Origin: a virus
Direction: 5' to 3' (one strand)
IMG/VR virus record: IMGVR_UViG_3300029258_005404
Length of the DNA stretch: 64,000 bases
Below, in pieces: positions 3,431-59,529 of the stretch; position 1 is the first letter of the stretch; every line of letters starts with the position of its first letter. The notes beneath the pieces are model-generated. The model had not been told where the DNA came from. It saw only the letters and a list, made by a program, of their open reading frames with translations, and did no database searches. Both the position numbers and the translations under genes were made by a program.

Positions 3431-4456
3431 TTATATTGTCAGTCCGGCATAGTAATTGGTAATATTAGCTGTAACCGTACCATCTGACGAAATGGTAAGA
3501 TCAGTTGAACCACCCGGGTTAACTGCGCTTGTCAGTGTCAGAAGTGCGGTTGAAAGAGCATTACCAATACCAGTAGCAATTGATTCTTTGGTTTGCCATT
3601 CGATGAGGCCGAAATTTGATTTAATTTCAAAACTCGGATCACCAAGGGCAAAATTATGACCAAGAAAATCAGGTGTGGTAAAGGCCCAGATATGGCCGAC
3701 AGGAAGAAGATCGCTTTTGATTGTTTTCACAACCTTTGTTCCGTATAAAGTGTCGGAAGTAATACCGTGAAGAACACGATCTTTACCAAAATCGTCACCA
3801 GCACCCGGCAGAAATACTGCAGTTTCAAATGCTTCCTGGCACATCAAAAGACATGCAACTTCTTTTCTCTTTGCGTCGGAACCATTAATTCCTGAAGCAA
3901 GAGTATTTTTCAGTTTTACAAAATCACCCGTTGCAAGCGTTAAAGCTGTAGTTCCAGCAGAATCAACAGCTTTTTGTGAACCGGCAGCAGCAACTGAAAG
4001 TGATGCGCCACACAGGCGAAGAAAATAAGTGTCCTCAAGTTTTTCGAGAACAGGAACTGATTTATCCTCGATACGCTTTGTGATTTTGTATTGATAGGCC
4101 CGAAGGTCTTCAACAGTAATCTGAAAACGTTTGGTCACAAAATTAATAACCGGTATAATATACCGTTCGCCTTTGACGTACTGGCCGTCAGGCTCACCCA
4201 GATTATCAACTGCAACAGCAGCTGCATCGGGCTCTATGTCACGAATCAGATACAGAGAATTGTCATTAACATTCCTCTGACAGTCCGCAACAGTAATTGG
4301 TTCCTGCGGGATTATGGCACGAGTAAACGCGGCTTCCTGCAGCTCAGTTTTCACATACTGGCGACCGGCTTCCGAAAGCTGTGCCTGGCCCTCAAGAGTA
4401 CTGACCTTTTCAAGAAAGGCCTCATTACTTTGCATGGCCGTTACATGGTCTAACAT
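3431..4456 (-). CDS. Major capsid protein (HK97-like fold)
   Basis: 341 aa, downstream of protease, scaffold-like and decoration genes, followed by a terminator; size and sequence pattern fit a capsid protein. Confidence 0.8.
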   Translation of the reverse strand: MLDHVTAMQSNEAFLEKVSTLEGQAQLSEAGRQYVKTELQEAAFTRAIIPQEPITVADCQRNVNDNSLYLIRDIEPDAAAVAVDNLGEPDGQYVKGERYIIPVINFVTKRFQITVEDLRAYQYKITKRIEDKSVPVLEKLEDTYFLRLCGASLSVAAAGSQKAVDSAGTTALTLATGDFVKLKNTLASGINGSDAKRKEVACLLMCQEAFETAVFLPGAGDDFGKDRVLHGITSDTLYGTKVVKTIKSDLLPVGHIWAFTTPDFLGHNFALGDPSFEIKSNFGLIEWQTKESIATGIGNALSTALLTLTSAVNPGGSTDLTISSDGTVTANITNYYAGLTI

Positions 4457-6666: not shown

Positions 6667-8460
6667 TTAATTAATTTCAAACAACTTTTTTTTCAATATT
6701 TCAGAGTTAATTTCATCTAACCAGAATTTATTATTAAACTGTTGATTAGAAAAAATTATACTTCCAGTTTTACAAAATGCGCTTTGATTATATGAATTAA
6801 TTATATATGAGTTTGGAAGCGCTATTGCTTCAGCTAATGTATTAAACGCTGACTGTTTAACCATCTTTCCTGAAAAATTAGTATTTTGAAGAATATTTTC
6901 ATAATTAACAGCCGGACCAAGCATAGGATTTGTATTTCCTGATTTATTTATTTCTTCAAATATTTTGTACATTACTCCGCCGCCAATGATAGATCGCAAC
7001 CATGGCTTTTTAGTAAATATTTCAGCAAGTTGTTTTGGTCCATATCCTTTTGCTTTTAATTTTAATCCGGCATAAAGTGCCGCAAGCCCGGAAAGAACTG
7101 CCGCAGGAGTTCCTATTTTCAATTCTTTTTTAGGCTCTTCCCATGGAAGGTCTTGTGAAGCAGCTTCTTTGAGCATTGCTATAGAAAGTCTTGGTCGCAG
7201 CAATGACGGAAAGCAACTTCTTTTTTCCAGACAAAATGCAAACGATTTTGCAAGAGCATCATCGTAATATTTATTCGATATGTCTATATATTGTGGTTCG
7301 ACTTCACTGCGATAATCAAATATGGTACCCTGTTTCTCCAATTCGTCAGCAAGTGATTTTTTGCCAATACGTATTAGAACTATTCTTTGAAACTCATCTG
7401 GTTTTGGATGTATACCAAGTCCTAATATAGTAGATAATATTTTACTTAATGGATGAGTAGCCGCAACAGAGTCTAATAAATTATTTGGAATTTTTGGCTC
7501 TGCAGCAATGACTTTATTCATTTTTTCATCAAGGGCTTTTCTTATGACAGTTGAGTTATCTATAGGTTTCATTGTCCCATCGATATCATCTTTTCCAAGT
7601 GCGCCAACCTCTTTATCTATATCACTTTCTTTATTCACAGAAGAAATTTTATCAAACATATCATCTGTTACACCATATGCGTCAGCAAGATATGCTGACG
7701 GTATAATAATACTTGCAGATGCGGCTTTTCCAAGAATAAAAGAGGTTCTATCTGCCCCTATATACACTCTTGATAAATCAAAAAATCTTGGAAAATCGTT
7801 CCATGCAAAAACCATTGTTCCTGGAAGTATAGTTTTACCAAGCTCTTTAGACCATAGTGCAGCAAGCTCAGGAGTTACTATTTGCCCCATATAATTTTTA
7901 AGATGTTTACAATATGCGTCTTTTGTTTTTGATTTATTATCACATATATTACAACGATCATACTTTACTCTACAACCCATCGACACTGCGACAGGTTCAC
8001 CATTCTCAAGGGCAGTAACAATATCAGCAGCTTTGACCACATCAATTGCCACTATAAGTTCGACACGATGAAGAACAGGGTTCCAGTGAGCAAATATAAT
8101 TTCACCAAACGATCGGCTCGGATCCTTATTTACATGATGTTTATAGAATTTTGCATAGTATTCAAAGGTTTTATACCCATAATCATTTGCAGTATTCATG
8201 TCAGTACGCAATGATTTATGGGAAAGCCCGGTCTCCGGAAACGCATCGCCGTTACGATTTGCACCCCAAACCTCATAAGATCCAAGTGCATTAATTACAA
8301 CATAATAACGCTCCGGCTTACGTTTAAGGTTAAGAATAACCTTCATTAATTCCGGAGCGTAATTACTCGCTGCAGTTTTATTGAGATGCATAATTGAATT
8401 AACCGGGACGATATGGTTCCCGGTCTCATCAATAGAATCATATTGGATATATTTAATCAT
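6667..8460 (-). CDS. Prohead maturation protease with Zn-ribbon and long C-terminal extension
   Basis: His motif FYKHHVNKD and Ser motif VAVSMGC fit the HK97/herpes-type prohead protease pattern, followed by CNIC...CKH; located upstream of scaffold and capsid genes. Confidence 0.7.
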   Translation of the reverse strand: MIKYIQYDSIDETGNHIVPVNSIMHLNKTAASNYAPELMKVILNLKRKPERYYVVINALGSYEVWGANRNGDAFPETGLSHKSLRTDMNTANDYGYKTFEYYAKFYKHHVNKDPSRSFGEIIFAHWNPVLHRVELIVAIDVVKAADIVTALENGEPVAVSMGCRVKYDRCNICDNKSKTKDAYCKHLKNYMGQIVTPELAALWSKELGKTILPGTMVFAWNDFPRFFDLSRVYIGADRTSFILGKAASASIIIPSAYLADAYGVTDDMFDKISSVNKESDIDKEVGALGKDDIDGTMKPIDNSTVIRKALDEKMNKVIAAEPKIPNNLLDSVAATHPLSKILSTILGLGIHPKPDEFQRIVLIRIGKKSLADELEKQGTIFDYRSEVEPQYIDISNKYYDDALAKSFAFCLEKRSCFPSLLRPRLSIAMLKEAASQDLPWEEPKKELKIGTPAAVLSGLAALYAGLKLKAKGYGPKQLAEIFTKKPWLRSIIGGGVMYKIFEEINKSGNTNPMLGPAVNYENILQNTNFSGKMVKQSAFNTLAEAIALPNSYIINSYNQSAFCKTGSIIFSNQQFNNKFWLDEINSEILKKKLFEIN

Positions 8461-13239: not shown

Positions 13240-14913
13240 CTATCCTAATGAAATTGCCGATGGCTCTTCTTCTCCAAACGGATCTGCGCCACCACTAAGA
13301 TATTTAGAATATTCACCTCTTGCTATTTTACAAGCTATTCTACTGAACATATATGCATGAAATGCATCATCAGGAACATTATGATCATATTTTGTCATTC
13401 TTAGTTGTTCACTATATTCTGAAAATATACCTGTAAAATCTGGTTGAAATTCTTTAAATTGCTCATACCTAAAAAAATCGATTTCGGCACGTTTAATCTC
13501 CATTATCATATCTGTCATCATTTGGGTCCGATTAATAATATAATATCCTTTATCTTTATCCCATCTTATTTTCTTTTTTAAAGACCCGTGCTCATAAAGC
13601 TCACCAAATCTTCCAGGACCAAGAGCTTCTACCATTAATGCGTTCGATGTACGACCATCGCCGGTATCGGCTATTGTAAGGACACATCTGAAACGATTAA
13701 TTATTCTGAGCATGTCTTTAACTTGTGGTATTGGGGCGGATAATCTTCCAGTATATTTTTTAGAAAATAATACTTTAAATTTTGCCTGATGCCATGTGCT
13801 TATTGTCAAAACCGAATATGATGTTCCTGATGCTGTATCACCTTTACCCCAATCAATTCCCGCAAAATTAATACTATTTTTGACAACAGGGTCACTCGGG
13901 GCCCATTCATCATCAACCATTTCATATTCTTGACAACACCTTTTAATTTCTGCTACACTTAATGGATGTTTTGCGGCCGCATAAGGTAATGCAAGAATTT
14001 CATTGAAGTATTTTTCAGTAGAATATATTTTTCGTGTTTGTATAACGTTTATTTGCCATGCTTCAGGGTGCTTTTCATTATTAACCCAATTTAGAACAAT
14101 CTGTGGAAGCCTAAATCCATCGATGTATGGGTCAGTGTTATTCATTTGCACCCACTGTCCATCACGATAATATATTGGTTTGCCGCATTTATTACAAATT
14201 AAACAGGTATCACCTATATTATATTCATTTATGAAATTATATTTCTTACACCCAGTATTCTGACATTTAATAATCCATTCATTCTGAGTTGATTCCTCCC
14301 AATAACGCTCCATTGTATTTTCAACTGTTTTAGGTGTGCCTGCATATAATTTACAGTTAAATAAATGCATTGGTAGGTCTGGAAATTGTTTTACAAGATG
14401 TTCCCATTTAGCAAGACTATGGCTCATCGCCTGTTCTATAACAGGGACATGATCGCTAATTATATCTTGAATTTCATCTATAGCAGAAAAATCAGTAGAT
14501 ATACCACGTATAGAGTCAGCAGTATGGAAAGCAGAACGAAGGTATATTTTGCTTCCATTTTTCATTTCTTTATATGATACCTGGTCTTTTGTTTTAGTAT
14601 CAAAATAATGATCTTTTACCAAATCAGATTCATGTAATGCGCTATTCAATTTATCAGTTGAAAATACAGATACTTGATTTCCGGTTGGGGCAACGTAAAG
14701 CGCATGATATGATGGATATTTAACTGCTGGTAACGATAATTTAAATCCAACCGTCGTAGACTTATGAGTCTGACGACCAAATTTGAACATCATTGCATTG
14801 GACCGTTTATTATATATTGGATAAAGGTGCCTCATTGAATCATAAGGCATTTGAAGGGGCATTCTATTTAAACAAAATATCCCTGTTGCAAATTGTGATG
14901 GGCTTATACTCAT
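13240..14913 (-). CDS. terL: Terminase large subunit
   Basis: Walker A-like GRQTHKST, Walker B AIDEIQD, Zn-ribbon CQNTGC...CNKC, nuclease motifs GIDWG and PDDAFH. Confidence 0.9.
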   Translation of the reverse strand: MSISPSQFATGIFCLNRMPLQMPYDSMRHLYPIYNKRSNAMMFKFGRQTHKSTTVGFKLSLPAVKYPSYHALYVAPTGNQVSVFSTDKLNSALHESDLVKDHYFDTKTKDQVSYKEMKNGSKIYLRSAFHTADSIRGISTDFSAIDEIQDIISDHVPVIEQAMSHSLAKWEHLVKQFPDLPMHLFNCKLYAGTPKTVENTMERYWEESTQNEWIIKCQNTGCKKYNFINEYNIGDTCLICNKCGKPIYYRDGQWVQMNNTDPYIDGFRLPQIVLNWVNNEKHPEAWQINVIQTRKIYSTEKYFNEILALPYAAAKHPLSVAEIKRCCQEYEMVDDEWAPSDPVVKNSINFAGIDWGKGDTASGTSYSVLTISTWHQAKFKVLFSKKYTGRLSAPIPQVKDMLRIINRFRCVLTIADTGDGRTSNALMVEALGPGRFGELYEHGSLKKKIRWDKDKGYYIINRTQMMTDMIMEIKRAEIDFFRYEQFKEFQPDFTGIFSEYSEQLRMTKYDHNVPDDAFHAYMFSRIACKIARGEYSKYLSGGADPFGEEEPSAISLG

Positions 14914-26580: not shown

Positions 26581-26916
26581 TTATTTAATCCTTTTTGATT
26601 TTTTCGGAGCAACCTTCCCATGTGATTTACATGCTGCAATTTTATTAATTTCATCAATAAAAGCAGCATTGTAAATTTCTTCAATAGAAGATTTTTTTTC
26701 CATTGAACGCTCTTTTAAAGCAGGGTATTTTTTATACACTTTTGCCCTTACTGTTGATTGTTCTCCAGGAGTTCCATGAGCTGAAACTCTTGCAAGAGCG
26801 TTTCGAGCATGAGCAAGATCATGAATAGGATATCTTTTTTCTTTCGGATACACAAAATTCTTTTTAGCCACATGCTTTCTACCTGTAACAGACAACTCTT
26901 TTGATAATTTTTCCAT
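26581..26916 (-). CDS. Small basic protein with YPIxDxxHARNA domain and AFIDEINKIA motif
   Basis: 111 aa with AAGGAG SD; its YPI..H..A motif is shared with 62220..63050. Confidence 0.65.
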   Translation of the reverse strand: MEKLSKELSVTGRKHVAKKNFVYPKEKRYPIHDLAHARNALARVSAHGTPGEQSTVRAKVYKKYPALKERSMEKKSSIEEIYNAAFIDEINKIAACKSHGKVAPKKSKRIK

Positions 26917-26934
26917 ACTAATACTCCTTATATT

Positions 26935-29900
26935 TTACCATGTGTACTCTCCAGTTACATATTGTGGAATCGGATGACCCTTCTCAGGATCTATAGTAGT
27001 TTTCCATCCCTGGGTTGTTCCCTCTTCAAGAACCTTTTTTATCCGGTTGTGAGCAAGGCGCGCAATCCAATCCTCAGAAGCCTGGGCTTTTGCACTTATT
27101 CCTGCTGGAGTTAAAAACGGTTCATGCTTTATTCTATTCTTAAAAACTTTAATTCTCTTATTTCCCTGTTTTGCTAAATCATTCATTATCATACGGCTTA
27201 TCTTCTGATGTTTTTTATGGCGACCATAATCCTGGGCGAGATGGTCTCCCTCTGAATTTTCAACGTCTTCTTCCTTTTCGTTATTTTTATTATAATATTC
27301 AACAGATGATAACTGTGCAACATCGTGAGGAGTATAAGTACTTGAGCCAGGATCTATTATACGTGTTGTATTTGTAATTCCACGAACGATAGTTTCTATA
27401 TCGCGTTTATCAAGTTTCCCTTCATTTACATCACTTATCTGTTCTACAAGGAACCTTTGTGTATCTTTCATACCTTTGTATTTAAGTATATCATGGGCGC
27501 TTGGTGTTCCAGTTGATAATTTATCGCCACTTCGAACTTTATCTCCTTTTCTTACAAGAAGATTGTTGTTTGGATCAATATATCTGGTTTCCTCTTTTAT
27601 TCCATTTGAAAGAACAATATCCCACCCACCAATTGGTGATTTGGTAGCAGATTTTATTTTACCATCCATGCTGGCAAGTGTTGCTTTATCTGGAATATTT
27701 TTTGTAAAACGTAGAGTTCTATCGAGAACATCAAATTTTGTTCCAGTTGTTATTTTACCCGCCTCAAGAGCGCCGCCTGTATGAAACGCTTTCATAGCAA
27801 GATCTAGGGAAGGTTCTGTGAGTGTATGGGCTGATATTACTCCGATATTATCTCCTACATTATGACGTTTTCCTTCATAATCAGTCCCATATGACCAGCT
27901 GGAAAACCCATCACCAGGGCTCGGATCGGTAAGTGGTGATTGAATAAATATCTTTTTTATTTTATGCTGATTAAGTTTATTAATAGTATCACTGGTAATA
28001 AGCTCATTGCGTTTTGCAATAATTTTTCCACCAGTATCTTTTGCGTCTTGAGCAAGATAGCGATTCATTACTGCTTTTTTATCATCAATATTATATTCAA
28101 GACCTTCATTATCAACGGGATCATCACTATATATCCTTGTATCGTAAATAGAATTCATTAAATCTTTAGTCAACCATCCTGGTTTAAACGATGAAACTGA
28201 TTTTTTAATATTTCCACCACGAGCACCATGAGCAGCAGCCCAATAATCAAATGTTCCAAGACCTTCTGAGTAAGACCTTTCAATTGGAATTGGAATAGGT
28301 TTATCATTTGCATCAGTAACTATCCCAGGCATAAAAGTAATAGCAGCAGTATTTCCTATGTCTCTTCCAGCCCCAGACGCTATACTAATCCCAAGCATTG
28401 TTTTGTCACCAAGTTTCTTTTCAATTATTTTTTGCCCTTTTTCTTTTGCTTGAGCATACGCTTTAATTACACTATTTTCTCTACCAGGAATAATTTTTGA
28501 TTTCGCTTCGTTAAGAAGTGGTTTCCTAATCGAATCATCAACGAGTGTGTCAGACACGCCGAGTGTAAATCCATATTGTGTCACATAATCGTTACCAACC
28601 TCCTTAATTTTATCAGCAAGACCAAGAGCAACTTTACCATTATGTTTTTTGGTAATATTATTTATCCAACCCTCTACATTTTTAGAATTGAGCTCTATGT
28701 TCCAATCCTGCATGTCATCAGGTACAACAGAATTTATTTCATGCATTCCAAATGGGGCCTTCTTACCGCCAATATCAACAAAGTCAGCATAGGTAAATTT
28801 ATTATTTTTAAATGCGAATCTTGCCTCATCAAGGTCTTGAAATTTCATACCGGTATCTTTTCCACCCTTGCCTTTTGACACTAACCAGCTACCTGCAACC
28901 ATATCCATCTGAGGAACATTTAATACCGAATCATAACCGGTTTTCAGCATACTTGCAGATGGCTTCATACCCTCAGCTTCTCTGAGCGCTTTTGGTCCAA
29001 CAGGGGTATGTATTTGAAAAGTGTCGCCATCAAAATCACCTCCGAAATTTTTACTGACAACAACAGCTGGAACCTCTATTGACCGACCGTCAGTGAGCTT
29101 TGGTTTAAAAGCAGTCATATTCCATCTATGAAGAGTTGGAGCTCTATTCGCTATAATCAGTCTTTCATCTGAAACAACTTGTCTTGCTCGTTTAAATATT
29201 GGTGACTCATCTTTAATATGTTTTTGAGCCTCGAGTGGTTTGTAACCCCAGCTTACCAATTTTTGCATAATGAATGGTTGAAATATCTTACTGGCCATAT
29301 CTTTTGGAATGCCAAGTTCATCTCCACCAAGTTGAGGATTAAGTATAATGGTTGATCGACCAACGAGATCTTGTCTACGTTCAAGAACTTTATCCTGAAA
29401 AAATCCTTCTTTTGTCTGTTTTGTTTTTCCACCATCAATTTGAGTAATGAAGCCTTTTTTATTTTTTACACGATGGAGATAAGATGTAGGCTCTGACAAT
29501 CCAGCAACTGCCTTTACATCATTATATAAAGCCCCTCTGATTTCAGCAAGATTAAGATTTTCAATATCAGCATTGCCTATTTCTTTAGTTTGTTTTTTAA
29601 GATCGTTTAGTGCGTTGTTGGTTCGTGATGTTTGCTGGTATAAATCATTTATATCTGAAAGAATAACAGTATTGTCTGTACCCATAGTTACAACAGGTCG
29701 ATACTTTGACGGTGTAACAAGAACATTTGAAATCATGTAATCAGTCGGTTTCATATTATTTTCTTTAAGTGATTTCAAATACCTTATTTTACGATGAGTC
29801 TTATTAAGTTCAGATGGATTTGTTATACGTTTTGCTATTTCCTGAGTGTTTGATAATTCTTTATCAACATTAATCCTTCCAAGCAAAAGCTCTACAGCCG

Positions 29901-32900
29901 GGCCTCCTGATATTGAACCCTGTGAACCAGGCTTTACAATTTCTCCTGTTGTTTTATTTACAAATTTTTTACCCACAATTATATCGTTCATCTGGCTAAC
30001 AGGAATTCCTATTAGGGCTGCGGCAGCAGGAGCTGTTACAGGATTAAGAACCTTCTCTGAAAGTTTGAAATGAGTATAATGGTCACCAAATAATCCACCA
30101 GCTTTAACAGGATCGAATAACCCTTCTTTCATTGGAGCAAGGTCTTTTTTACGATAAGTAAGATCGGGCCGCTTTATTTCTCCACGAGAACGATCAACTA
30201 TCTCTGTATCAGTCATAGGTTTTAAAGTAAATGTTTTACCTTTTTGCTCAACATCAATACCAGCCCCAGCCATCATTGCGAGCATTTTATCCCATACAAA
30301 TGCTTTTTTAGGTGGAGGTAGACTCTGACCGGTTTCCATCGCTTTCCAATACTCATCATTTCTCTGGCCTTTAATTTCAAACATCTCCCTTAGATTCTCA
30401 TTGGCACCACGGGCAAGCATTGCCGCCATCTCCATCCTGCCGAGATTCTTTCCTCCGGTTTTGCCGCCAGACACAGGCTGCTCATTCGCATCATAGCCGT
30501 CTTTATAACGAGCTGAAAATTTATGATCAACAACGTGCTCGAGTTTTAATATATTGGAAACGCCATTAGCAACAGGGTTGATAAACGGCTTTCCTGTCTC
30601 GGGATCGATAAGTATATCTTTATCAGATAGTCCTGCTTTTTTAAGATCTGCCATTATTTTTTTGGAATTATCTTTACCAGAGAAGTTCTGTATTACATAT
30701 TGCTCACCGGTTTTTGCTGCTATTTTTCCAGCTGCATTTTCAAGAAGCTGAGATGTATTTATTCTATTGGAAACGCCAATCGGATTCATGGTAAGTTCAA
30801 TGTGCTCACCAGTCTCAGGATTATATGGCATTTCACTATCAGGAACTATCTTCGAAATAATATGTTTATTGCCATGAAGCCCTGATATCTTGTCAGCAAC
30901 CTTGAGTTGTTCATCAGTCTTTACACTTACAACAACGCTATTTCCTGACTTCTCAACATTCGTAACAGTGCCAACAATATCTTTATTCCATTTAAGAGCA
31001 TTATTCGACATGTCTCTTTTTAATTGTTTATCAAGGCGCCCGAGAGCTATGTCATCAGCTGTTGGAGGTTTATGCTCCATATGTGCAATAAGGACATCAT
31101 CACGTTCTACCTTTTGCCCGACTTTTATAACACCATCCTTATCAAGCTTTTTCGATTGGTTTGCATTAAGTTCTTCTGGGTAATACGCTTTAAATTTATC
31201 CCTTGAGAAAACTCCTTTCGCAGAGCGTTTTGTTTTAAAATCATACATATGCTCAGAAGTTAATTTTTTAGCGCCACTTTCCGACATTATTGCCGAATCT
31301 TCGTAATTGTACCCTTTATATGGGAGGTATGCAGTTCTGAGATTAGCCCCTATCGCAACTTGACCATCTTTAGTAAAATTATTATCAGCAAGGAGATTTC
31401 CGCGTTTGACACTATCTCCTTCTTTTACAACCGGCTCATTGTGAAGAAAACTTTCTGAATTCATTGAAAAATTGTTATAAAGTTGTATGCGATGCTTCTC
31501 ACCGTTTTTATCAGTTACTGTGATATTATCAGATGTAACTTTTGTAACGGTGCCGTCGACTGGAGATTTTGGTAATGCCATAGACCCGGCAAGTATTTCA
31601 CTGATACTATTACCTTTTTCATCAACTACTTTAAATAATGGTTTATCACGATTTTTTAGAGGCAGCGCCTGCTCCTGCATTTTTGACGCTGTGAGCCCTC
31701 TATTTCCCTGAATAGAATTAAGAAACGGTATTGAATTTGCAGACGTATCAAACATTCCTACAGGACTTGATATAATAGTATCAACTTTTGATGCTGCAAT
31801 TTCAGCCAATTTACCTCTATTGATAACCTTGACTTTTCTCTTTTTTGGTTTCGGCCTATCTTTTGTCAAATCATATTCATCGGGGAATGCCACATTTTTA
31901 TCCCACGTATCAGTTGGTTTCAACAATAACTTTTCACCATTTGGAGTAATATGCTTTGCGTATATATCCGTTCCGGCTTTAATGGCATCCATAGTACTAT
32001 GAACAGCAACTCCGATACCTGGCCCCTCCGGAGTATGAAGAGGATCAAAGTAACCTGCTTCACTATTGGATATTTGCCTTGTTTCATTGGTAATAGCATT
32101 TGATGTTCCTATACCACCTTCACCCATAATGGTATATTTATTACTTTCACCAATAATTGACATAATATTTGTTTGATTTGGAGGGTTTGAGAGCTGACTG
32201 TTTGTGAGTACTCCGACAACGAATGGGTCAAATACCTGTGAACTTATTGATTTATTTATGGTATGATTTTTCTTTAGCTTGTGTTTGATATTATTAGTAA
32301 TCTTGCCACTATTTTTAACAAGCTTCTCTCTAATATGATCTTCAACATCAAAAAATGATTTAAAAACAAGAGATTCGCGGTCATCACCATCAAGTTTACC
32401 TGAGTGGATATCAATTATTTTTTTTGAAGCATCGAGAAGAACGTCTTTATTGACATTTTTATACGCTTTGCCGAGAGTTATCTTTGTTGTTTCGGGGTCA
32501 AGTCCAGTTTCAAAAAGTCTGTCATTTATTTCTTTTTTGATAGTTTCTGGTCTCGAGCCTACTGCAGGAGCCCTGCCGAATATTGCCTCATATAATTTAT
32601 TCTGATCTCTGGTCTCATGCTTATCATATGCTTTTGCATTGGCTTCATAAACTTGCTCGCCCCATCTTTCAACCAGTTCATTTCTGGTAACACCAACAGC
32701 TTTAAGCGCATTAATTAGAGGAACATTCTTGCTACCATACCCCATAGTGAAAGTCTTTTTTTCAGGGGAAAAATTTATTTTGAAATTATTATTAAAACCC
32801 CTATCGAAGTCAATTGTTTTATCAACATTGAAAAATGAACTGATTTCTCCATTTGCTTGTTTTTTGGTATATACGCCAGGCTTTAATCTCGACTGTTTAG

Positions 32901-33282
32901 TAAACTGGTATTCATTACCTTTTATCAAATACGTTCCACGATCAGTTATTTTAGGAATGGTAGTAACTTTAATACTTGGAACATGATCTATTATTTTTCC
33001 GGTTTCTTTATCAATTACAGACAAATCAGCGCGTAAATCGTTAGCCCATATCTTTCCTTTGTTTCTTACTGATTTCTGAGAAGATATGTCTTTATTATTA
33101 TATTTTTCATCAACCCATACCTTATTAACCTGTAATTTAAAATCGTTATCTTCTACGGATTGTAGTATTTTTTTTACTGTATCAGACACGGTCACGTTCA
33201 TGAGCGTGTTGTTTCTCGCATCAGCTTCCATCTCTGATAATTTACGAAGAACGTTCTGTTCTTTTGTCGGCATCGACAGCAA
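26935..33282 (-). CDS. rpoBC: Single-chain fused beta/beta-prime DNA-directed RNA polymerase
   Basis: Beta motifs GNRGLTASKMQEQALPL, DKISGLHGNKHII, MNPIGVSNRIN, GGKNLGRME. Beta-prime motifs GRSTI, NRAPTLHR, catalytic GGDFDGD, GARGG...GWLTKDL, EPSLDLAMKAFHTGG. Confidence 0.95.
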   Translation of the reverse strand: MLSMPTKEQNVLRKLSEMEADARNNTLMNVTVSDTVKKILQSVEDNDFKLQVNKVWVDEKYNNKDISSQKSVRNKGKIWANDLRADLSVIDKETGKIIDHVPSIKVTTIPKITDRGTYLIKGNEYQFTKQSRLKPGVYTKKQANGEISSFFNVDKTIDFDRGFNNNFKINFSPEKKTFTMGYGSKNVPLINALKAVGVTRNELVERWGEQVYEANAKAYDKHETRDQNKLYEAIFGRAPAVGSRPETIKKEINDRLFETGLDPETTKITLGKAYKNVNKDVLLDASKKIIDIHSGKLDGDDRESLVFKSFFDVEDHIREKLVKNSGKITNNIKHKLKKNHTINKSISSQVFDPFVVGVLTNSQLSNPPNQTNIMSIIGESNKYTIMGEGGIGTSNAITNETRQISNSEAGYFDPLHTPEGPGIGVAVHSTMDAIKAGTDIYAKHITPNGEKLLLKPTDTWDKNVAFPDEYDLTKDRPKPKKRKVKVINRGKLAEIAASKVDTIISSPVGMFDTSANSIPFLNSIQGNRGLTASKMQEQALPLKNRDKPLFKVVDEKGNSISEILAGSMALPKSPVDGTVTKVTSDNITVTDKNGEKHRIQLYNNFSMNSESFLHNEPVVKEGDSVKRGNLLADNNFTKDGQVAIGANLRTAYLPYKGYNYEDSAIMSESGAKKLTSEHMYDFKTKRSAKGVFSRDKFKAYYPEELNANQSKKLDKDGVIKVGQKVERDDVLIAHMEHKPPTADDIALGRLDKQLKRDMSNNALKWNKDIVGTVTNVEKSGNSVVVSVKTDEQLKVADKISGLHGNKHIISKIVPDSEMPYNPETGEHIELTMNPIGVSNRINTSQLLENAAGKIAAKTGEQYVIQNFSGKDNSKKIMADLKKAGLSDKDILIDPETGKPFINPVANGVSNILKLEHVVDHKFSARYKDGYDANEQPVSGGKTGGKNLGRMEMAAMLARGANENLREMFEIKGQRNDEYWKAMETGQSLPPPKKAFVWDKMLAMMAGAGIDVEQKGKTFTLKPMTDTEIVDRSRGEIKRPDLTYRKKDLAPMKEGLFDPVKAGGLFGDHYTHFKLSEKVLNPVTAPAAAALIGIPVSQMNDIIVGKKFVNKTTGEIVKPGSQGSISGGPAVELLLGRINVDKELSNTQEIAKRITNPSELNKTHRKIRYLKSLKENNMKPTDYMISNVLVTPSKYRPVVTMGTDNTVILSDINDLYQQTSRTNNALNDLKKQTKEIGNADIENLNLAEIRGALYNDVKAVAGLSEPTSYLHRVKNKKGFITQIDGGKTKQTKEGFFQDKVLERRQDLVGRSTIILNPQLGGDELGIPKDMASKIFQPFIMQKLVSWGYKPLEAQKHIKDESPIFKRARQVVSDERLIIANRAPTLHRWNMTAFKPKLTDGRSIEVPAVVVSKNFGGDFDGDTFQIHTPVGPKALREAEGMKPSASMLKTGYDSVLNVPQMDMVAGSWLVSKGKGGKDTGMKFQDLDEARFAFKNNKFTYADFVDIGGKKAPFGMHEINSVVPDDMQDWNIELNSKNVEGWINNITKKHNGKVALGLADKIKEVGNDYVTQYGFTLGVSDTLVDDSIRKPLLNEAKSKIIPGRENSVIKAYAQAKEKGQKIIEKKLGDKTMLGISIASGAGRDIGNTAAITFMPGIVTDANDKPIPIPIERSYSEGLGTFDYWAAAHGARGGNIKKSVSSFKPGWLTKDLMNSIYDTRIYSDDPVDNEGLEYNIDDKKAVMNRYLAQDAKDTGGKIIAKRNELITSDTINKLNQHKIKKIFIQSPLTDPSPGDGFSSWSYGTDYEGKRHNVGDNIGVISAHTLTEPSLDLAMKAFHTGGALEAGKITTGTKFDVLDRTLRFTKNIPDKATLASMDGKIKSATKSPIGGWDIVLSNGIKEETRYIDPNNNLLVRKGDKVRSGDKLSTGTPSAHDILKYKGMKDTQRFLVEQISDVNEGKLDKRDIETIVRGITNTTRIIDPGSSTYTPHDVAQLSSVEYYNKNNEKEEDVENSEGDHLAQDYGRHKKHQKISRMIMNDLAKQGNKRIKVFKNRIKHEPFLTPAGISAKAQASEDWIARLAHNRIKKVLEEGTTQGWKTTIDPEKGHPIPQYVTGEYTW

Positions 33283-33374
33283 CCTTGGTTATAAAAACGA
33301 AAACGAGGTTATATAGATAATATAACATTAATGTATGATTACGGCAAATGCCTATGTGATTATCAAAAAAAATC

Positions 33375-33390
33375 TGATATAACAATTATA
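33375..33390 (+). promoter_or_regulatory. Putative promoter, TG-N-WATAAC-WATW motif
   Basis: TGATATAACAATTATA upstream of the plus-strand block starting at 33450. Confidence 0.45.
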
Positions 33391-33449
33391 GAAGATATTA
33401 TTTCCCAAAAAGTATCCACTAACCTTTTCGTGTAAGGAGATAAGAGTAT

Positions 33450-35624: not shown

Positions 35625-38600
35625 ATGTCTTCTAAATATAAATTAAGCAAAGGACAATTGAAAACTTTATTTGCATCAGCAGACATGCTGATGGAGGGTC
35701 AGTACCGCGAACTCTACAAGCGTCTCGGATGGCGCGAAGGCGGTAACAAAAATTTCCACTGCTGGAATACTTCAGGACACTCAGAAGGTGTCGATTCCCA
35801 CGCCTCCCTGTCAATAAATGAACAAACCGGTCAATGGCACTGTCACACTTGTGATATTAAGGGTAACTTTCAGTCGTACTGGCGTGATTACATTAAAGGT
35901 ACTGCTCCATACGGTGACCACTACCATGATTTCATTATAGACTTCCTCGGCATGACTGAGGGCCAATATACCGTCCCGTTCGCTGAGAGTTTTGATGATC
36001 CTAAGTGCGCTGAATATTATGAAGATTTATTAAAGCTTCATGCTAAGCTCGATGAAATCAGAAAAAAGAAGGGTGAGGGCAATTATGTCCTGAAAGATGA
36101 GTTGGTAGCCCTGGCAAACGAGGAATCATCTCTCCCGATGAAGCTATTGGACGTATGTGTAGAAAGATTACTCAATAACCCGCAGAAAATGAAATACCTA
36201 CTCGAAGAGCGTAAAATTAATGAAGATATGATACGGGCATTACGCCTCGGCCTTGATGATAGAGGAAGAGTAGTTTTTCCACAGATCAACGCCGAGGGTG
36301 AGCTGCTCAACATGAAACTGTATGACCCATGGTGCAGTGATAAGCGCTTTAAATGGCAATACAGCCACAAGGGCCGTGAAACATGTCCGACTCCCATGGT
36401 GAATTTCACCAACAACTCATTGCTCATGATGGCCGGGGAACCTGATATGCTTTGCGCTATCGGTTTTGGTTTTGAGAACGCTGTCACAATGGGTGCAGAA
36501 CGCAATACCGATGTGGTTAAGGTATTTGGCCGGGAAAGGGCGAAGCAGCTGTTCTCCGGGAAGGAAATAACGATCTGCCTGGATGCTGATGATACCGGGA
36601 AAGCGGCTGCTCAGAAACTGGCGCATTCTCTGTATCCGTTTGCGAAGCAGATAAAGATAATCAATCTTGATCAGTCGAATATAAATCCGTTCGGACTCGA
36701 TCCTGATAAAATGATTGAAGTTACCACTAAGAATGGGAAGAAGAAAATGAAGCGGGTTGAAACCGACTTCACTGATTTTATGAAGAAGAATGGGTTCGAA
36801 AACGATGCCAAAGAAAGATTTATTGAATTAATAAAAAATACCGAAGCGTATACAGAAAATATTGACCGTATTGAAAAGAAATTATACAAAGTAACTCTTC
36901 AAGAAAGTCGTATGTCAAAATATTATTCTTCTGATGAATCAAAAGAGCTTGAAGTTATTGCTGCTGTTGGGGAATTTAATGATAGCGCTTATCAGTATTC
37001 TGATCATTTTTGTTTAAGTTGCCCCCAAACAGGAGATCCAAGTAAAAAGCTGTATGCATCATGTAAAAAATGTTCAGTACCATCAATACCTGAATTTCGT
37101 GATAAGGAATATGTTGATTTCTTTTTAATAAGAGGAGAAATACCAAAAGAATATTCAGGATACCCTTCATGTATAAGTGTAAACGCTCACGAAATATTAG
37201 ACCTTATTGAATGTGCAGAAAGTAAAAAAAATAAAAATCTTAAATTGATATGCGGTATAAGCCCAACATGTCAGCAATTTAAAGTAAGACCGGTGACTAC
37301 TAAAAAAATACTCAGAGCAAGGCTCGCTAGAGACGTTTCTGAATATGGCGATAGTAGTGTTGATGGTTCTGCAGAAAGCACTTCAATAGAAATGGATGCA
37401 TATATTCTTGGTGATATGGATATATATCCTAATAAATCATATAAATTTACCGGCGTTCAAACAGTATCGCCTCAAACACAGCATCGAGTATTATACATAC
37501 ATAAAGCTGAGCCAATAACTACATCAATTGATAATTTTGTCATGGATCAAGAAATTCATGATATGCTTAAAATATTTAGACCAAAAGGTGGTGAATCTGT
37601 AGATAGTGCGCTTGACAGACGTTATGAGGTATTTGCTCATGCAGCAGGTGTTACCGGTAGAAGAGAAATGTTTCTTTTAAACGACCTTGCATTCTTTTCA
37701 TCAGCAGAAATAGATAATAAAAGATTATTTCCTAATTTAAAAAGAGGATGGGTTGAAGTCCTCATAGGTGGTGACACCAGATGTTGTAAAACATTGATTA
37801 GTAAATTTCTAATGAATTATTATAAATATGGTGAAATGGTTTCTGGATCAAGTGCAATAACAAGAGCAGGTCTTATGGGAGGGACAATTTACGTTGGTAA
37901 AAATCCTAAAGTATCTTGGGGAAAAATACCAATGAATGATGGTCGCTGTTTAATATTTGATGAACTCAGTATGATTAAACAAGAAATATTGAGTGATTTA
38001 ACCGATTGTAGATCGTCAGGTATTATTGATGTCACGACAATAAGCGGTTCTAAAAAAGCTCCCGCAAGAGTAGCAAAAATAATGTTATCAAATGCGCGAT
38101 CTTGGACTGGCGATAAGGCGCCTTCGTTTGGTAGTGGCATGAGTTTTCTTAAAAATCTCTGTTTTAAAGATGAAATATTATCTCGATTTGATATAGCGTG
38201 GATAGTAAAGGCAGGTGACATTAATTATGAAAAGCTTGATGATAATTATAGGCAGCCAACTACTGAATTTACTTCTTTTCAATGCAGATATTTATTGATG
38301 TGGGGAAAATCAAGAAAACCAGATCAATATATATATGAAGAAGGAATAGAAACATTTATAAATGAAAGTCAGAAAAAATTACTTGCAATGTTTCATACAA
38401 GTACGCAGCTTATAAATCAAGAGATAAGATTAAAAATAGCCCGAATGGCAAAATCAATTGCAGTAATGTGTTATTCAACTGTTAAAAATGATTGGGAAAA
38501 AGTATATGTTAAAAAAGAACATGTCGATTTTATTGTAAGACTGTTAATACGATTATATTGCCATAGAAATATGGGTTTTGATATATACTCACAACAACAA

Positions 38601-39050
38601 AGAAGTCAGGAAAAACTTGGCGATATGCGTTTTATGGAGAATATTATAAAATATATAGAACCAAGCTCTTTACTTCTTGAAGATGAATTTACAGACAAAA
38701 CACTTCAACAAATTTTTTCTGACTACCTTCAGCGCGTATGGGATGGGCAGCTTTCAATGGTAGATGCAAAAAATGATAAAATAAGAACTACCGGTATGAC
38801 TACTTCTCAAGGTCTGCCGAAATTGATTAATACATTAGTCTCGCGTAAATGTTTAATAAGGGTGCGTGGCTCGTACAGAAAAACACCTATATTTAATGAA
38901 TGGTTAAAAGATATGATAAAAAAGGAGAAAAGTGAAGAGTTGTCAAATATACTCGAAAATCCAGGGAATGAATCAAGTGCTGAAGACCTTAAGATCGTCC
39001 AGAACTTTATCAAAAATAGTAAACCAGATCAACAGGAATTACAAGGTTGA
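35625..39050 (+). CDS. Primase-helicase fusion: Zn finger, TOPRIM primase, MCM-like AAA+ helicase
   Basis: FHCWN...WHCHTC; AGEPDMLC and CLDADDTG (TOPRIM); Walker A-like GGDTRCCKT, Walker B LIFDELS, Arg finger LSRFD. Confidence 0.8.
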   Translation: MSSKYKLSKGQLKTLFASADMLMEGQYRELYKRLGWREGGNKNFHCWNTSGHSEGVDSHASLSINEQTGQWHCHTCDIKGNFQSYWRDYIKGTAPYGDHYHDFIIDFLGMTEGQYTVPFAESFDDPKCAEYYEDLLKLHAKLDEIRKKKGEGNYVLKDELVALANEESSLPMKLLDVCVERLLNNPQKMKYLLEERKINEDMIRALRLGLDDRGRVVFPQINAEGELLNMKLYDPWCSDKRFKWQYSHKGRETCPTPMVNFTNNSLLMMAGEPDMLCAIGFGFENAVTMGAERNTDVVKVFGRERAKQLFSGKEITICLDADDTGKAAAQKLAHSLYPFAKQIKIINLDQSNINPFGLDPDKMIEVTTKNGKKKMKRVETDFTDFMKKNGFENDAKERFIELIKNTEAYTENIDRIEKKLYKVTLQESRMSKYYSSDESKELEVIAAVGEFNDSAYQYSDHFCLSCPQTGDPSKKLYASCKKCSVPSIPEFRDKEYVDFFLIRGEIPKEYSGYPSCISVNAHEILDLIECAESKKNKNLKLICGISPTCQQFKVRPVTTKKILRARLARDVSEYGDSSVDGSAESTSIEMDAYILGDMDIYPNKSYKFTGVQTVSPQTQHRVLYIHKAEPITTSIDNFVMDQEIHDMLKIFRPKGGESVDSALDRRYEVFAHAAGVTGRREMFLLNDLAFFSSAEIDNKRLFPNLKRGWVEVLIGGDTRCCKTLISKFLMNYYKYGEMVSGSSAITRAGLMGGTIYVGKNPKVSWGKIPMNDGRCLIFDELSMIKQEILSDLTDCRSSGIIDVTTISGSKKAPARVAKIMLSNARSWTGDKAPSFGSGMSFLKNLCFKDEILSRFDIAWIVKAGDINYEKLDDNYRQPTTEFTSFQCRYLLMWGKSRKPDQYIYEEGIETFINESQKKLLAMFHTSTQLINQEIRLKIARMAKSIAVMCYSTVKNDWEKVYVKKEHVDFIVRLLIRLYCHRNMGFDIYSQQQRSQEKLGDMRFMENIIKYIEPSSLLLEDEFTDKTLQQIFSDYLQRVWDGQLSMVDAKNDKIRTTGMTTSQGLPKLINTLVSRKCLIRVRGSYRKTPIFNEWLKDMIKKEKSEELSNILENPGNESSAEDLKIVQNFIKNSKPDQQELQG

Positions 39051-57429: not shown

Positions 57430-59529
57430 CTAAACTGGAGAATTTGGAGAAACTGGCGGTCTTGATTCCGGCAATTGTTTGTTATACTGTTTTTTATTAA
57501 ATGATTGATTTGCAGTAACCGGATCTGCCCCCATTTCTGTAGGGGTCGGTGGTGTTTCTGCACCAATATCACCTTGGCTATATACTGGAAATTCACCAGG
57601 GGTCATTTTTTGAGCAAGTTGTTTATCTGGATTAATATCAGCTTCAATAATATTTAATTCTTTAAGATTATTATATACCTCTTGATAAAGAGATGGCGTT
57701 GAATTTTTCATTATAAGCATGCGCATTTTAAATTCATCAGGATTTGTTTTTGCTGCAATTGCAAACCTCTGAGTAAGCATAAGGATAAGGTTTGGCACAG
57801 GTATAGTTAACGGATCGAGGCCACTTCTTGCTGCTGCAATTGCAACCTCTTCAGCAATTGTATCTGCATTTTCCTCATGCATTTGAGTATCAAGCTCTTC
57901 TTTTTTACCCTGAGATTCTCTATCATGAACCTCAAGGCGATCAGCATTTGCAGCTTGCGCGTCAGCTTGATACATTGCATTAACAACAGATGCAGAACCT
58001 TGAGCAGTTGCTTCGCCCTCCATCTCTTCTATCATCAATTCAATATTTTTCTTCAATTCTTTCAATTTAAGTTCGTATTCTTGTTCAGGATCAAAACCAA
58101 GCTCTTTTGTAACTGTTGTTTTTGACATAAGAGTTTTTGATGCCGACCCGAGGGCTGCATTAACAATAAGTTGTTTTTTCTGCATATCATCAGCCATTTT
58201 GAAATCAGCCATTCTAATATCTATTTCAGGCATATCAAGGTATCTGGAAACATTTTCAACTACAAATTCGAGATATTCATGCATATCATTGCGATGATTA
58301 ATAAATGTATTTTCAACAACTCGGAGAGAAACATTGCTACCTGACCACGACGCTCCACCACGAATAATTTCAGGAATAATACCTATCCCTGTTATTATTG
58401 TATCCTCTGTCGCTTTTAATTCTGGAGTAATAGAAAGAACTTTTGCGTCACCACTAAAATTAATTTGCCCTATTGGTAAAGGAACAACAGAAATATAATT
58501 AGGGTCAGCTTTCCATTTTCTTATCTCATCTTCAATTTTTGTTCTCCATCCTGAAAGATTAACTGTGGCATGTGGACTGATATCACCTGTCCCTTGTGGA
58601 AAAAGAAGTCTTAAAGGAACAATATGATCAAAGGCAATCATTTCATTTCCTTTTTTCAAAATCTTCGTATGAAAGATATCTTTCATAACAGGCATAATTG
58701 CAGGAATTCCCCATCCACGTTCTGACGATATAACATATTGTGGGCCAGATCTTTTTAAATGGAATACGTTATCAGCCATTAATTTTAATGGCTTTTTTTT
58801 CTTAACGGCCTCTATAACTTCAAGCCTGGTAGTACTGATAATATCAATATCGCCACGTTTAATTGCGACTTCCATCTGCGGAGGGATTTTATAAAAATAA
58901 AAATGATCACCACTAATAGTATTGTATTTAATATCAATGTATATCAAATCCCAATGGATAAGATTGAATTTATCTATTTCTTTTGTATTTCTATCACGAG
59001 CTTCGAGTCGTCCATCAGATTTACATTTGGGGCATTTTCCATAAAATTTATAATCTTTGAATTTATATTTTATTGAATCAGCTGCAAATCTATGATTACA
59101 TTGTTTACAAGTAAAAAATCTTTTAAATGGGTAATTTATGGATATAATTGCATTTCCGTAAGCATAATAATCCATTCCGGCTTGTTTCATAGATCTAATA
59201 ATTTTGAGCTTTTTTTCAAGTATTTTTTTCCATTTTTCAATAGTTTTATCATCCTTTATTTCAGAGTCTTTGTCTTCATTATAGATTAAATCTGTAATAG
59301 GATATTCTGATAATTTAGTTATACATTGTGAAACAAACCCATCACTGAGAACACATGCTGCTATATATCGAATAAGGGATTTAATACTTTTTGGTATAAA
59401 AGTGCTTGTCATGTCCATAAATGGACTATCATATTTTAACGAGCCCCTGGTAAATGCTATTTTAAGATTACTTCCACTATCAGCTCCGCCACCAGAAATA
59501 CCAGGACCAACTAATCCCTCATTTGCCAT
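57430..59529 (-). CDS. Portal protein
   Basis: 699 aa; portal-like pattern (VFHLKR, RGWGIP...KD, IITGIGI...I.GG); Zn-ribbon insertion CKQC...CPKC; acidic/Pro-rich tail. Confidence 0.75.
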   Translation of the reverse strand: MANEGLVGPGISGGGADSGSNLKIAFTRGSLKYDSPFMDMTSTFIPKSIKSLIRYIAACVLSDGFVSQCITKLSEYPITDLIYNEDKDSEIKDDKTIEKWKKILEKKLKIIRSMKQAGMDYYAYGNAIISINYPFKRFFTCKQCNHRFAADSIKYKFKDYKFYGKCPKCKSDGRLEARDRNTKEIDKFNLIHWDLIYIDIKYNTISGDHFYFYKIPPQMEVAIKRGDIDIISTTRLEVIEAVKKKKPLKLMADNVFHLKRSGPQYVISSERGWGIPAIMPVMKDIFHTKILKKGNEMIAFDHIVPLRLLFPQGTGDISPHATVNLSGWRTKIEDEIRKWKADPNYISVVPLPIGQINFSGDAKVLSITPELKATEDTIITGIGIIPEIIRGGASWSGSNVSLRVVENTFINHRNDMHEYLEFVVENVSRYLDMPEIDIRMADFKMADDMQKKQLIVNAALGSASKTLMSKTTVTKELGFDPEQEYELKLKELKKNIELMIEEMEGEATAQGSASVVNAMYQADAQAANADRLEVHDRESQGKKEELDTQMHEENADTIAEEVAIAAARSGLDPLTIPVPNLILMLTQRFAIAAKTNPDEFKMRMLIMKNSTPSLYQEVYNNLKELNIIEADINPDKQLAQKMTPGEFPVYSQGDIGAETPPTPTEMGADPVTANQSFNKKQYNKQLPESRPPVSPNSPV

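Follow-up and report, generated by a model that had tools for sequence, protein, structure and literature searches.

Can an RNA polymerase of the cellular type be built without a single cysteine, and why would a virus have one? The question is raised by a gene on the minus strand of a 64,000-nucleotide stretch of viral DNA (IMG/VR virus record IMGVR_UViG_3300029258_005404; the whole of this stretch is called here the window). The gene, whose coordinates are given with those of other features in Table 1, encodes a predicted fusion of the beta and beta-prime subunits of RNA polymerase, one in which both the cysteines and the canonical zinc sites are missing. The window itself belongs to a viral record of 186,450 bp that has direct terminal repeats and is rated complete.

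An earlier note on this DNA, made from its letters alone, had proposed that the enzyme is packaged in the virion and injected, having lost its cysteines convergently with the unrelated polymerase of phage N4 so that it could pass unfolded through tail and envelope. The analysis described here leads to a related view. The polymerase would be carried in the particle and delivered into the host, and the loss of cysteine and zinc, together with the fusion, would suit an enzyme that must refold after transit. We assign this view a probability of roughly two in three.

Beta and beta-prime in a single chain

The frame is open up to a TTG at 33282, giving for window positions 26935-33282 (minus strand) a translation of 2115 residues, whose numbering is used throughout. 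This translation is free of stops, contains no cysteine and is the longest minus-strand frame there. The likely start of the protein, however, is ATG 33273, which has AAGG 10 nucleotides upstream; here gene callers in two independent assemblies agree with the protein database on 2112 amino acids. The 2115 residues first attributed to the protein are therefore the length of the open frame.

That beta and beta-prime share this chain, as the earlier note had said, is borne out by matches to both, in that order. Pfam places beta domains at residues 369-939 and beta-prime domains at residues 1138-1984. The Rpb2_6 match has an E value of 1.3e-57, solved beta chains in the PDB match at E 1e-74, and solved bacterial beta-prime chains align with residues 1125-2000, with E values down to 1.8e-82. 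The two parts are joined almost directly, with nearly no linker. A polymerase of the T7/N4 type was considered and rejected, as beta and beta-prime account for every Pfam and PDB match. Judged by these matches, the protein is a DNA-dependent RNA polymerase of the two-barrel kind and of bacterial lineage, with all of beta and beta-prime in one chain of about 240 kDa.

Three motifs named in the earlier note lie where it had placed them (GLFDPVKAGG from residue 1054, GGDFDGD from residue 1414, DGFSSWSYG from residue 1791). The aspartate triad of the catalytic loop corresponds by alignment to Salmonella RpoC D460/D462/D464 and is invariant in a 32-sequence alignment, as is the D-K pair of the beta motif DKISGLHGNK. 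On the evidence of these motifs, the active site is a normal one.

The two residues before the triad (1414-1415, nucleotides 29038-29043), which match E. coli N458 and A459, are both glycine here and in 37 of 133 relatives. In cellular enzymes the loop reads NADFDGD, and its asparagine helps the bacterial polymerase to discriminate ribonucleotides from deoxyribonucleotides. With two glycines in this place, the sugar selectivity of the phage polymerase may differ.

Structure prediction points the same way as the profile matches. An AlphaFold2 model of residues 1529-2115 has a mean predicted local distance difference test (pLDDT) score of 82.4, with 90-95 in the region of the former zinc site, and Foldseek matches it to solved beta-prime chains at E 1e-33 and template-modelling (TM) scores of 0.67-0.71. 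The alignment behind this model includes relatives that carry the zinc site, so the fold is expected to persist without the metal, in a manner that the model does not reveal.

Natural RpoB-RpoC fusions are found in Helicobacter and Wolbachia, with the same order of subunits in one polypeptide. Those fusions are, of course, cellular; they have alpha and omega subunits and both zinc sites, and are about 2900 amino acids long, compared with 2112 here.

The absence of cysteine

The count confirms that cysteine is absent. The frame holds no TGT or TGC codon, while reading the same strand in its two other frames yields 28 and 118 such triplets. The DNA of the gene is therefore not short of them.

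Cysteine makes up 1.22% of the residues encoded in the rest of the window and 1.19% of those in the proteins of the whole phage genome. At the genome rate about 25 cysteines would be expected in the polymerase, and the probability of finding none is about 1e-11. The gene blocks of this phage do, of course, differ, with structural blocks at 0.6-0.7% cysteine and replication blocks at 1.5-2.2%. Even measured against the cysteine-poor structural blocks, the probability of zero is about 1e-6. Replication and metabolic proteins, which are products of the same cell, likewise hold 1.5-2.2%.

Nor is this a trait of the large proteins of the phage in general, since giant proteins encoded in the low-cysteine structural blocks retain it (13 cysteines in 3081 amino acids, 44 in 2597). 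The purge is limited to the polymerase, a sigma factor, a helicase and a few others, including a protein of 1109 amino acids.

The two zinc sites

The largest subunit of cellular enzymes has two zinc sites, and the fate of each was followed by alignment with Salmonella RpoC. The cysteines of the N-terminal zinc ribbon (C70, C72, C85 and C88) have no counterpart in the phage polymerase, where the alignment opens a gap of about 32 residues that is common to two relatives of only 34% identity. The ligands of the second site (C814, C888, C895 and C898) have become P1722, D1786, S1794 and S1797. The earlier note had called the first site absent and had read DGFSSWSYG at the second, and both descriptions stand. 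This polymerase, then, has neither canonical zinc site and no cysteine.

A purge across the family

Viral contigs of up to 186 kb encode more than 130 fused relatives, about 2000-2140 amino acids in length; besides these there are intein-bearing versions of about 2600. A cysteine census was made of 133 full-length, intein-free fused relatives, comprising 275,228 residues. Outside the second zinc site these contain 73 cysteines, or 0.027%.

At the second zinc site the pattern is all or none. The quartet is complete in 76 of the 133 and wholly without cysteine in the other 57; partial quartets number zero. A maximum-likelihood tree, rooted at its midpoint, implies six independent losses of the quartet. 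One of these founds the clade of the window polymerase (49 sequences, mostly with P, D, S and S in these positions, support 1.0).

The family also provides an internal control. In 25 close relatives the same gene is interrupted by an intein, and these inteins contain 3-13 cysteines each while their exteins contain none. Here, cysteine-bearing and cysteine-free segments belong to one gene, one genome and one event of expression, which rules out composition as the cause. Comparison across these genes shows that selection against cysteine acts on the mature polymerase only, and that it does so family-wide and recurrently.

The intein has features of its own. It contains homing-endonuclease domains, lies directly after the catalytic DFDGD, starts with cysteine or serine and apparently ends in aspartate; the +1 splice nucleophile is threonine, not cysteine.

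Evidence for packaging from phage Arash

The closest cultured relative with particle data is the Salmonella phage Arash, a myovirus with a genome of 181 kb (PMC10585845). Its polymerase and those of the Vibrio phages D69, D148 and D181 belong to the same family as the window polymerase, with 29-31% identity over 95% of the length; the genomes are of similar size (181-187 kb). These enzymes share with ours the joining of beta to beta-prime, the lack of the N-terminal zinc ribbon and the near absence of cysteine. They differ in that their beta-prime comes in two pieces, divided behind the catalytic barrel (1525 + 606 amino acids), while that of the window phage is unbroken, and in that they retain the four-cysteine second zinc site that the window polymerase has lost. 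In Arash, Gp206 (1525 amino acids) consists of beta and the front of beta-prime and has a single cysteine; Gp216 (606 amino acids) is the rest, and its only cysteines are the four of the zinc quartet. Beyond that quartet, the enzymes of Arash and D69 hold one or two stray cysteines.

In gradient-purified Arash particles, Gp206 gave the most spectra of any protein (3516, with 100% coverage), compared with 1333 for the capsid protein (PMC10585845). Gp216 gave 1210, the helicase Gp217 gave 1148 and the sigma factor Gp10 gave 467. A second Arash sigma factor, Gp196, which has three cysteines, is absent from the particle list (PMC10585845). The authors of that study left open whether the polymerase is packaged or carried over, and did not comment on its sequence features (PMC10585845).

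Because polymerase, sigma factor and helicase all have Arash homologues that are among the best detected in particles, packaging is supported by homology. It is probable, in our estimate, that the polymerase of the window phage is packaged in its particles. Of what the earlier note proposed, the packaging draws support from a homologue of about 31% identity, while injection and unfolded passage are inferred.

A sigma factor and a helicase, also without cysteine

The earlier note reported neither an alpha nor a sigma gene in the window. Neither is indeed there, and for alpha this extends to the complete genome, where the alpha and omega profiles PF01000, PF01193 and PF01192 match nothing, although they match in all control genomes. 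It is possible that the phage polymerase uses the alpha subunit of its host. For sigma it does not extend so far, as a sigma gene lies elsewhere in the genome.

Finding this gene required some indirection. The Pfam profiles for sigma regions 2 and 4 (PF04542, PF04545) matched nothing in the genome. The gene was detected through a sub-cut-off match to TIGR02937, then through its BLAST match to Arash gp10 and a profile-based search against solved structures. There the family profile matches solved sigma factors (E 3e-8) along the whole of the protein, whose 232 amino acids include no cysteine. Its relatives are equally bare (120 of 120 without cysteine, in 27,772 residues). No homologue of the second Arash sigma factor, gp196, was found in the genome.

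The second companion is an SNF2 helicase of 607 amino acids, also without cysteine, which may be a RapA-like partner of the polymerase. Among its relatives, 106 of 120 have no cysteine, and the average for the set is 0.026%. In a relative with 59% identity the helicase gene is 6 kb from the polymerase gene. Both sigma and helicase are homologous to the Arash proteins, which are likewise free of cysteine; the Arash gp217 gene adjoins the beta-prime gene, and its product is present in the particles.

The cysteine-free protein of 1109 amino acids (genome 174817-178146, minus strand, outside the window) has no Pfam match. It is the positional counterpart of Arash gp4, a protein of 1097 amino acids that has no cysteine and gave the second most spectra in the particles. 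A weak likeness to tape measure proteins comes from language-model features only (an ESM Atlas look-up).

The earlier note had also suggested in vitro transcription without added factors. Because the phage encodes a cysteine-free sigma factor and an SNF2 helicase, and because the homologues of both are in Arash particles, factor-free transcription appears unlikely for the window polymerase.

Comparison with other polymerases

None of the three findings that the earlier note had named as refuting its proposal was made; in particular, homologues that do not travel in virions are not equally poor in cysteine. Salmonella RpoB and RpoC have 7 and 15 cysteines, 22 in all, and the subunits of the non-virion polymerase of phage phiKZ have 33 in 2850 amino acids (1.16%). 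The phiKZ and AR9 sets resemble the window enzyme in being two-barrel polymerases without alpha or omega. One of the sets travels in the particle and is ejected, and in AR9 the N-terminal zinc domain is missing from the non-virion enzyme as well. They differ in having four to five chains, two paralogous sets, no sigma factor and retained cysteine.

A second comparison is with N4. In N4-like phages the virion polymerases and the proteins ejected with them are free of cysteine (0.00075%, compared with 0.865% across the proteome), and this has been ascribed to the route they take, across the tail and then a periplasm that forms disulfides (PMC3715699, PMC11445570). The convergence with N4 that the earlier note had proposed is real, and for the N4-like enzymes the explanation is already in print. 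Like the window enzyme, N4 gp50 and DEV gp71 are giant cysteine-free polymerases, there known to be particle-borne and ejected, and there too the suppression of cysteine reaches accompanying proteins. Unlike it, they have the T7-like single-subunit fold, belong to podoviruses and need no sigma. The resemblance is one of convergence and not of descent.

A third comparison is with gp96 of the Thermus phage P23-45, a particle-borne two-barrel polymerase with no cysteine in 5002 amino acids (PMC10770324). This enzyme is minimal and very diverged, and a tape measure protein is fused to it. The non-virion polymerase of that phage, gp64, also has no cysteine, and seven other counted P23-45 proteins of the gp96 locus average about 0.23%. 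With both virion and non-virion enzymes free of cysteine in the cysteine-poor proteome of a thermophile, P23-45 does not discriminate between explanations.

The clade to which the window polymerase belongs is itself already known. It was described, on phylogeny alone, as the multisubunit-RNA-polymerase-encoding Caudovirales (mReC) by Weinheimer and Aylward in 2020 (PMC7481178). Like the window phage, these are uncultured tailed phages from IMG/VR and metagenomes, with beta and beta-prime similar enough to the cellular subunits to be picked up by COG0085 and COG0086. The mReC paper is silent on fusion, cysteine, zinc, virion, sigma and intein in the clade (PMC7481178). In the open-access literature no paper was found on the fusion, the loss of zinc or the purge of cysteine in this polymerase family. 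The principle that ejected proteins avoid cysteine is, of course, also already known, from N4.

How such an enzyme might be used

The proposed cycle is simple. Late in infection, copies of the polymerase would be packed into the head together with the sigma factor and the helicase. In the next infection all three would enter with the DNA, and the early genes would be transcribed without the host enzyme. Newly made copies would probably continue transcription later, as the sole phage polymerase.

Such a protein would be stored outside any cell, would be fed through a tail of narrow bore and across an oxidising envelope, and would then have to refold alone, from a non-native state and at very low copy number. 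Thiols and metal sites would be a liability during storage, transit and refolding. The fusion, in turn, would guarantee one-to-one assembly of beta with beta-prime without an alpha scaffold.

In its fullest form, this proposal has a sigma-dependent transcription kit of bacterial type, made up of the single-chain zinc-free core, the sigma factor and the SNF2 helicase, none of them with any cysteine left. The kit would ride in the head of a phage with a contractile tail and be injected, and selection for refolding would have driven out a universally conserved structural zinc site about six times. We regard this fuller version as evenly poised between true and false. The same balance applies to the narrower claim that unfolded transit caused the loss of cysteine, on which we would not bet either way.

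Weighing the alternatives

Several observations weigh against delivery of the enzyme in the particle, or against the cause proposed for its lack of cysteine. The ejection of a 240-kDa enzyme through a contractile tail has no demonstrated precedent. For particle data we depend on a relative of about 31% identity rather than on the window phage, and the Arash particle list of 116 proteins includes ribonucleotide reductases and RNA ligases (PMC10585845). Metabolic enzymes in such a list make some carry-over from the lysate likely. The virion polymerase of phiKZ, which is ejected, has 16 cysteines in 2614 amino acids (0.61%); as it is only mildly depleted, ejection alone does not force total loss. 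The particle-borne Arash enzyme, for its part, keeps its zinc quartet. Thus, neither packaging nor ejection demands that all cysteine and zinc be lost. Finally, the neighbourhood of the gene gives less help than might be wished. Here 24 kb of plus-strand genes part the polymerase gene from that for the portal, and searches of the genes flanking the polymerase against PHROGs and Pfam gave no function for those directly downstream.

One alternative accepts that the enzyme is particle-borne, and holds that cysteine and zinc were lost for the sake of storage in an oxidising, metal-poor extracellular particle, unfolded passage being irrelevant. This draws on the same family-wide purge and the same Arash particle data as does delivery with refolding, and a general extracellular effect would fit the low cysteine content of the structural-block proteins relative to the replication proteins. 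Shelf life, however, should matter equally to the large proteins from those blocks, which keep their 13 and 44 cysteines, and to the phiKZ virion polymerase, which keeps its 16. The near-absolute purge is confined to proteins destined for work in the cytoplasm (polymerase, sigma and helicase), just as in N4-like phages. We therefore think this explanation unlikely.

A second alternative holds that the polymerase acts after infection and is not packaged, its detection in Arash being the carry-over of an abundant protein. Its cysteines would then have been lost under some intracellular pressure, such as oxidative or thiol-reactive conditions, or a host defence that attacks thiols or zinc sites. 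The clearly metabolic enzymes in the Arash list speak for it, as does the presence of one polymerase gene only in the complete genome, which means that the enzyme must also work late in infection. So does the distance of 24 kb from the portal gene in the window phage. Yet carry-over does not readily produce more spectra than those of the capsid protein, at complete coverage, with Gp216, Gp217 and Gp10 also high, while the cysteine-containing sigma factor Gp196 goes unlisted. An intracellular pressure would also have to spare the replication and metabolic proteins made in the same cell, at their 1.5-2.2% cysteine. Further, the portal gene is the immediate upstream neighbour of the polymerase gene in three cases, namely Arash, Vibrio phage D69 and the contig of one distant relative (34% identity). 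This combination of non-packaging and intracellular pressure we consider quite improbable.

That chance, base composition or an assembly artefact explains the absence of cysteine is next to inconceivable and was rejected, for it has in its favour an AT-rich genome (guanine-plus-cytosine content about 0.35) and nothing else, and it is opposed by the probability of zero given above, the plentiful off-frame triplets, the presence of an identical protein in independent assemblies, the normal cysteine levels of the inteins in the same gene of relatives, and the pattern across 133 relatives.

Genome context

The polymerase gene is the first in a block of minus-strand genes; downstream of it in this block are those for the large terminase subunit, a structural protein and the major capsid protein. 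The "virion operon" of the earlier note is therefore an apt description only loosely: the strand block is shared, with the portal gene 24 kb away. Among the genes of the plus-strand block that intervenes (33450-57304) are one for a primase-helicase (35625-39050) and others with non-structural products; the block has the look of a segment inserted or inverted into a morphogenesis module.

Directly downstream of the polymerase gene is a gene for 111 amino acids (26581-26916, minus strand), which matches phrog_16160 at E 4e-14 and DUF6582 below threshold. In the search for promoters, a survey of 9-mers in intergenic regions gave only runs of A and T and one unrelated word. The 9-mer TAATAACTA has eight copies genome-wide, all of them in intergenic gaps; it may have a regulatory role or belong to small-RNA genes that are repeated.

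Table 1. Features of the polymerase gene, its surroundings and its presumed partners (window coordinates unless marked as genome coordinates)
Feature	Position	Strand	Basis or remark
Single-chain beta/beta-prime RNA polymerase gene	26935..33273	-	2112 amino acids from ATG 33273; open frame up to TTG 33282; zero cysteine codons
Beta module	30178..33273	-	Residues 4-1035; Pfam Rpb2_3, Rpb2_6; PDB beta chains align with residues 47-1032
Two-lysine active-site motif of beta, DKISGLHGNK	30865-30894	-	Residues 797-806
Beta-prime module	26938..30177	-	Residues 1036-2115; Pfam Rpb1_1/2/3/5; PDB beta-prime chains, E 1.8e-82
Place of the deleted N-terminal zinc ribbon of beta-prime (GLFDPVKAGG^LFGDHYT)	30073..30123	-	Alignment with Salmonella RpoC and two distant relatives
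Catalytic loop GGDFDGD	29023..29043	-	Residues 1414-1420; Mg-binding Asp triad intact
Empty intein site D1420/T1421	29020..29025	-	25 close relatives have an intein of 513-536 amino acids here
P1722, replacing Salmonella C814, the first cysteine ligand at the second zinc site	28117..28119	-	Alignment
Second zinc-site remnant (DGFSSWSYG): D1786, S1794, S1797 for Salmonella C888, C895, C898	27886..27927	-	Alignment; pLDDT 90-95
Intergenic region separating the polymerase gene from the divergently oriented plus-strand replication block	33274..33449	.	Presumed promoter site
Major capsid protein homologue	3431..4456	-	Arash gp226, E 2e-28
Homologue of Arash structural protein gp222	6667..8460	-	Also a weak match to a prohead-protease profile
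Large terminase subunit	13240..14913	-	phrog_675, E 3e-55; Arash gp1, E 4e-53; downstream of the polymerase gene
Portal protein homologue	57430..59529	-	Separated from the polymerase gene by the 24-kb plus-strand block
SNF2 helicase, 607 amino acids, 0 Cys	genome 166560-168383, outside the window	-	Arash gp217, E 1.5e-88, 38% identical
Sigma factor, 232 amino acids, 0 Cys, group-3 type	genome 168828-169526, outside the window	-	Arash gp10, E 7e-20

What a polymerase without the usual zinc sites implies

The zinc sites of the largest subunit are regarded as universal in multisubunit RNA polymerases. Here is a large natural family that dispenses with one of them throughout, and that has shed the other several times.

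If the polymerase is indeed packaged and delivered, the rule that ejected proteins contain no cysteine would extend from the unrelated N4 enzyme to a holoenzyme of the cellular type. A simple signature in the sequence would then predict which proteins of a phage enter its host, and phages below jumbo size would have a second route to independence from host transcription. Should the enzyme prove to be the core of an injected kit, it would be the first natural RNA polymerase of the cellular type to need neither zinc, nor an alpha scaffold, nor a second large subunit. A sigma-directed polymerase of 240 kDa in a single chain, free of thiols and of metal sites of this kind, would be a handy tool for structural work and for transcription in vitro.

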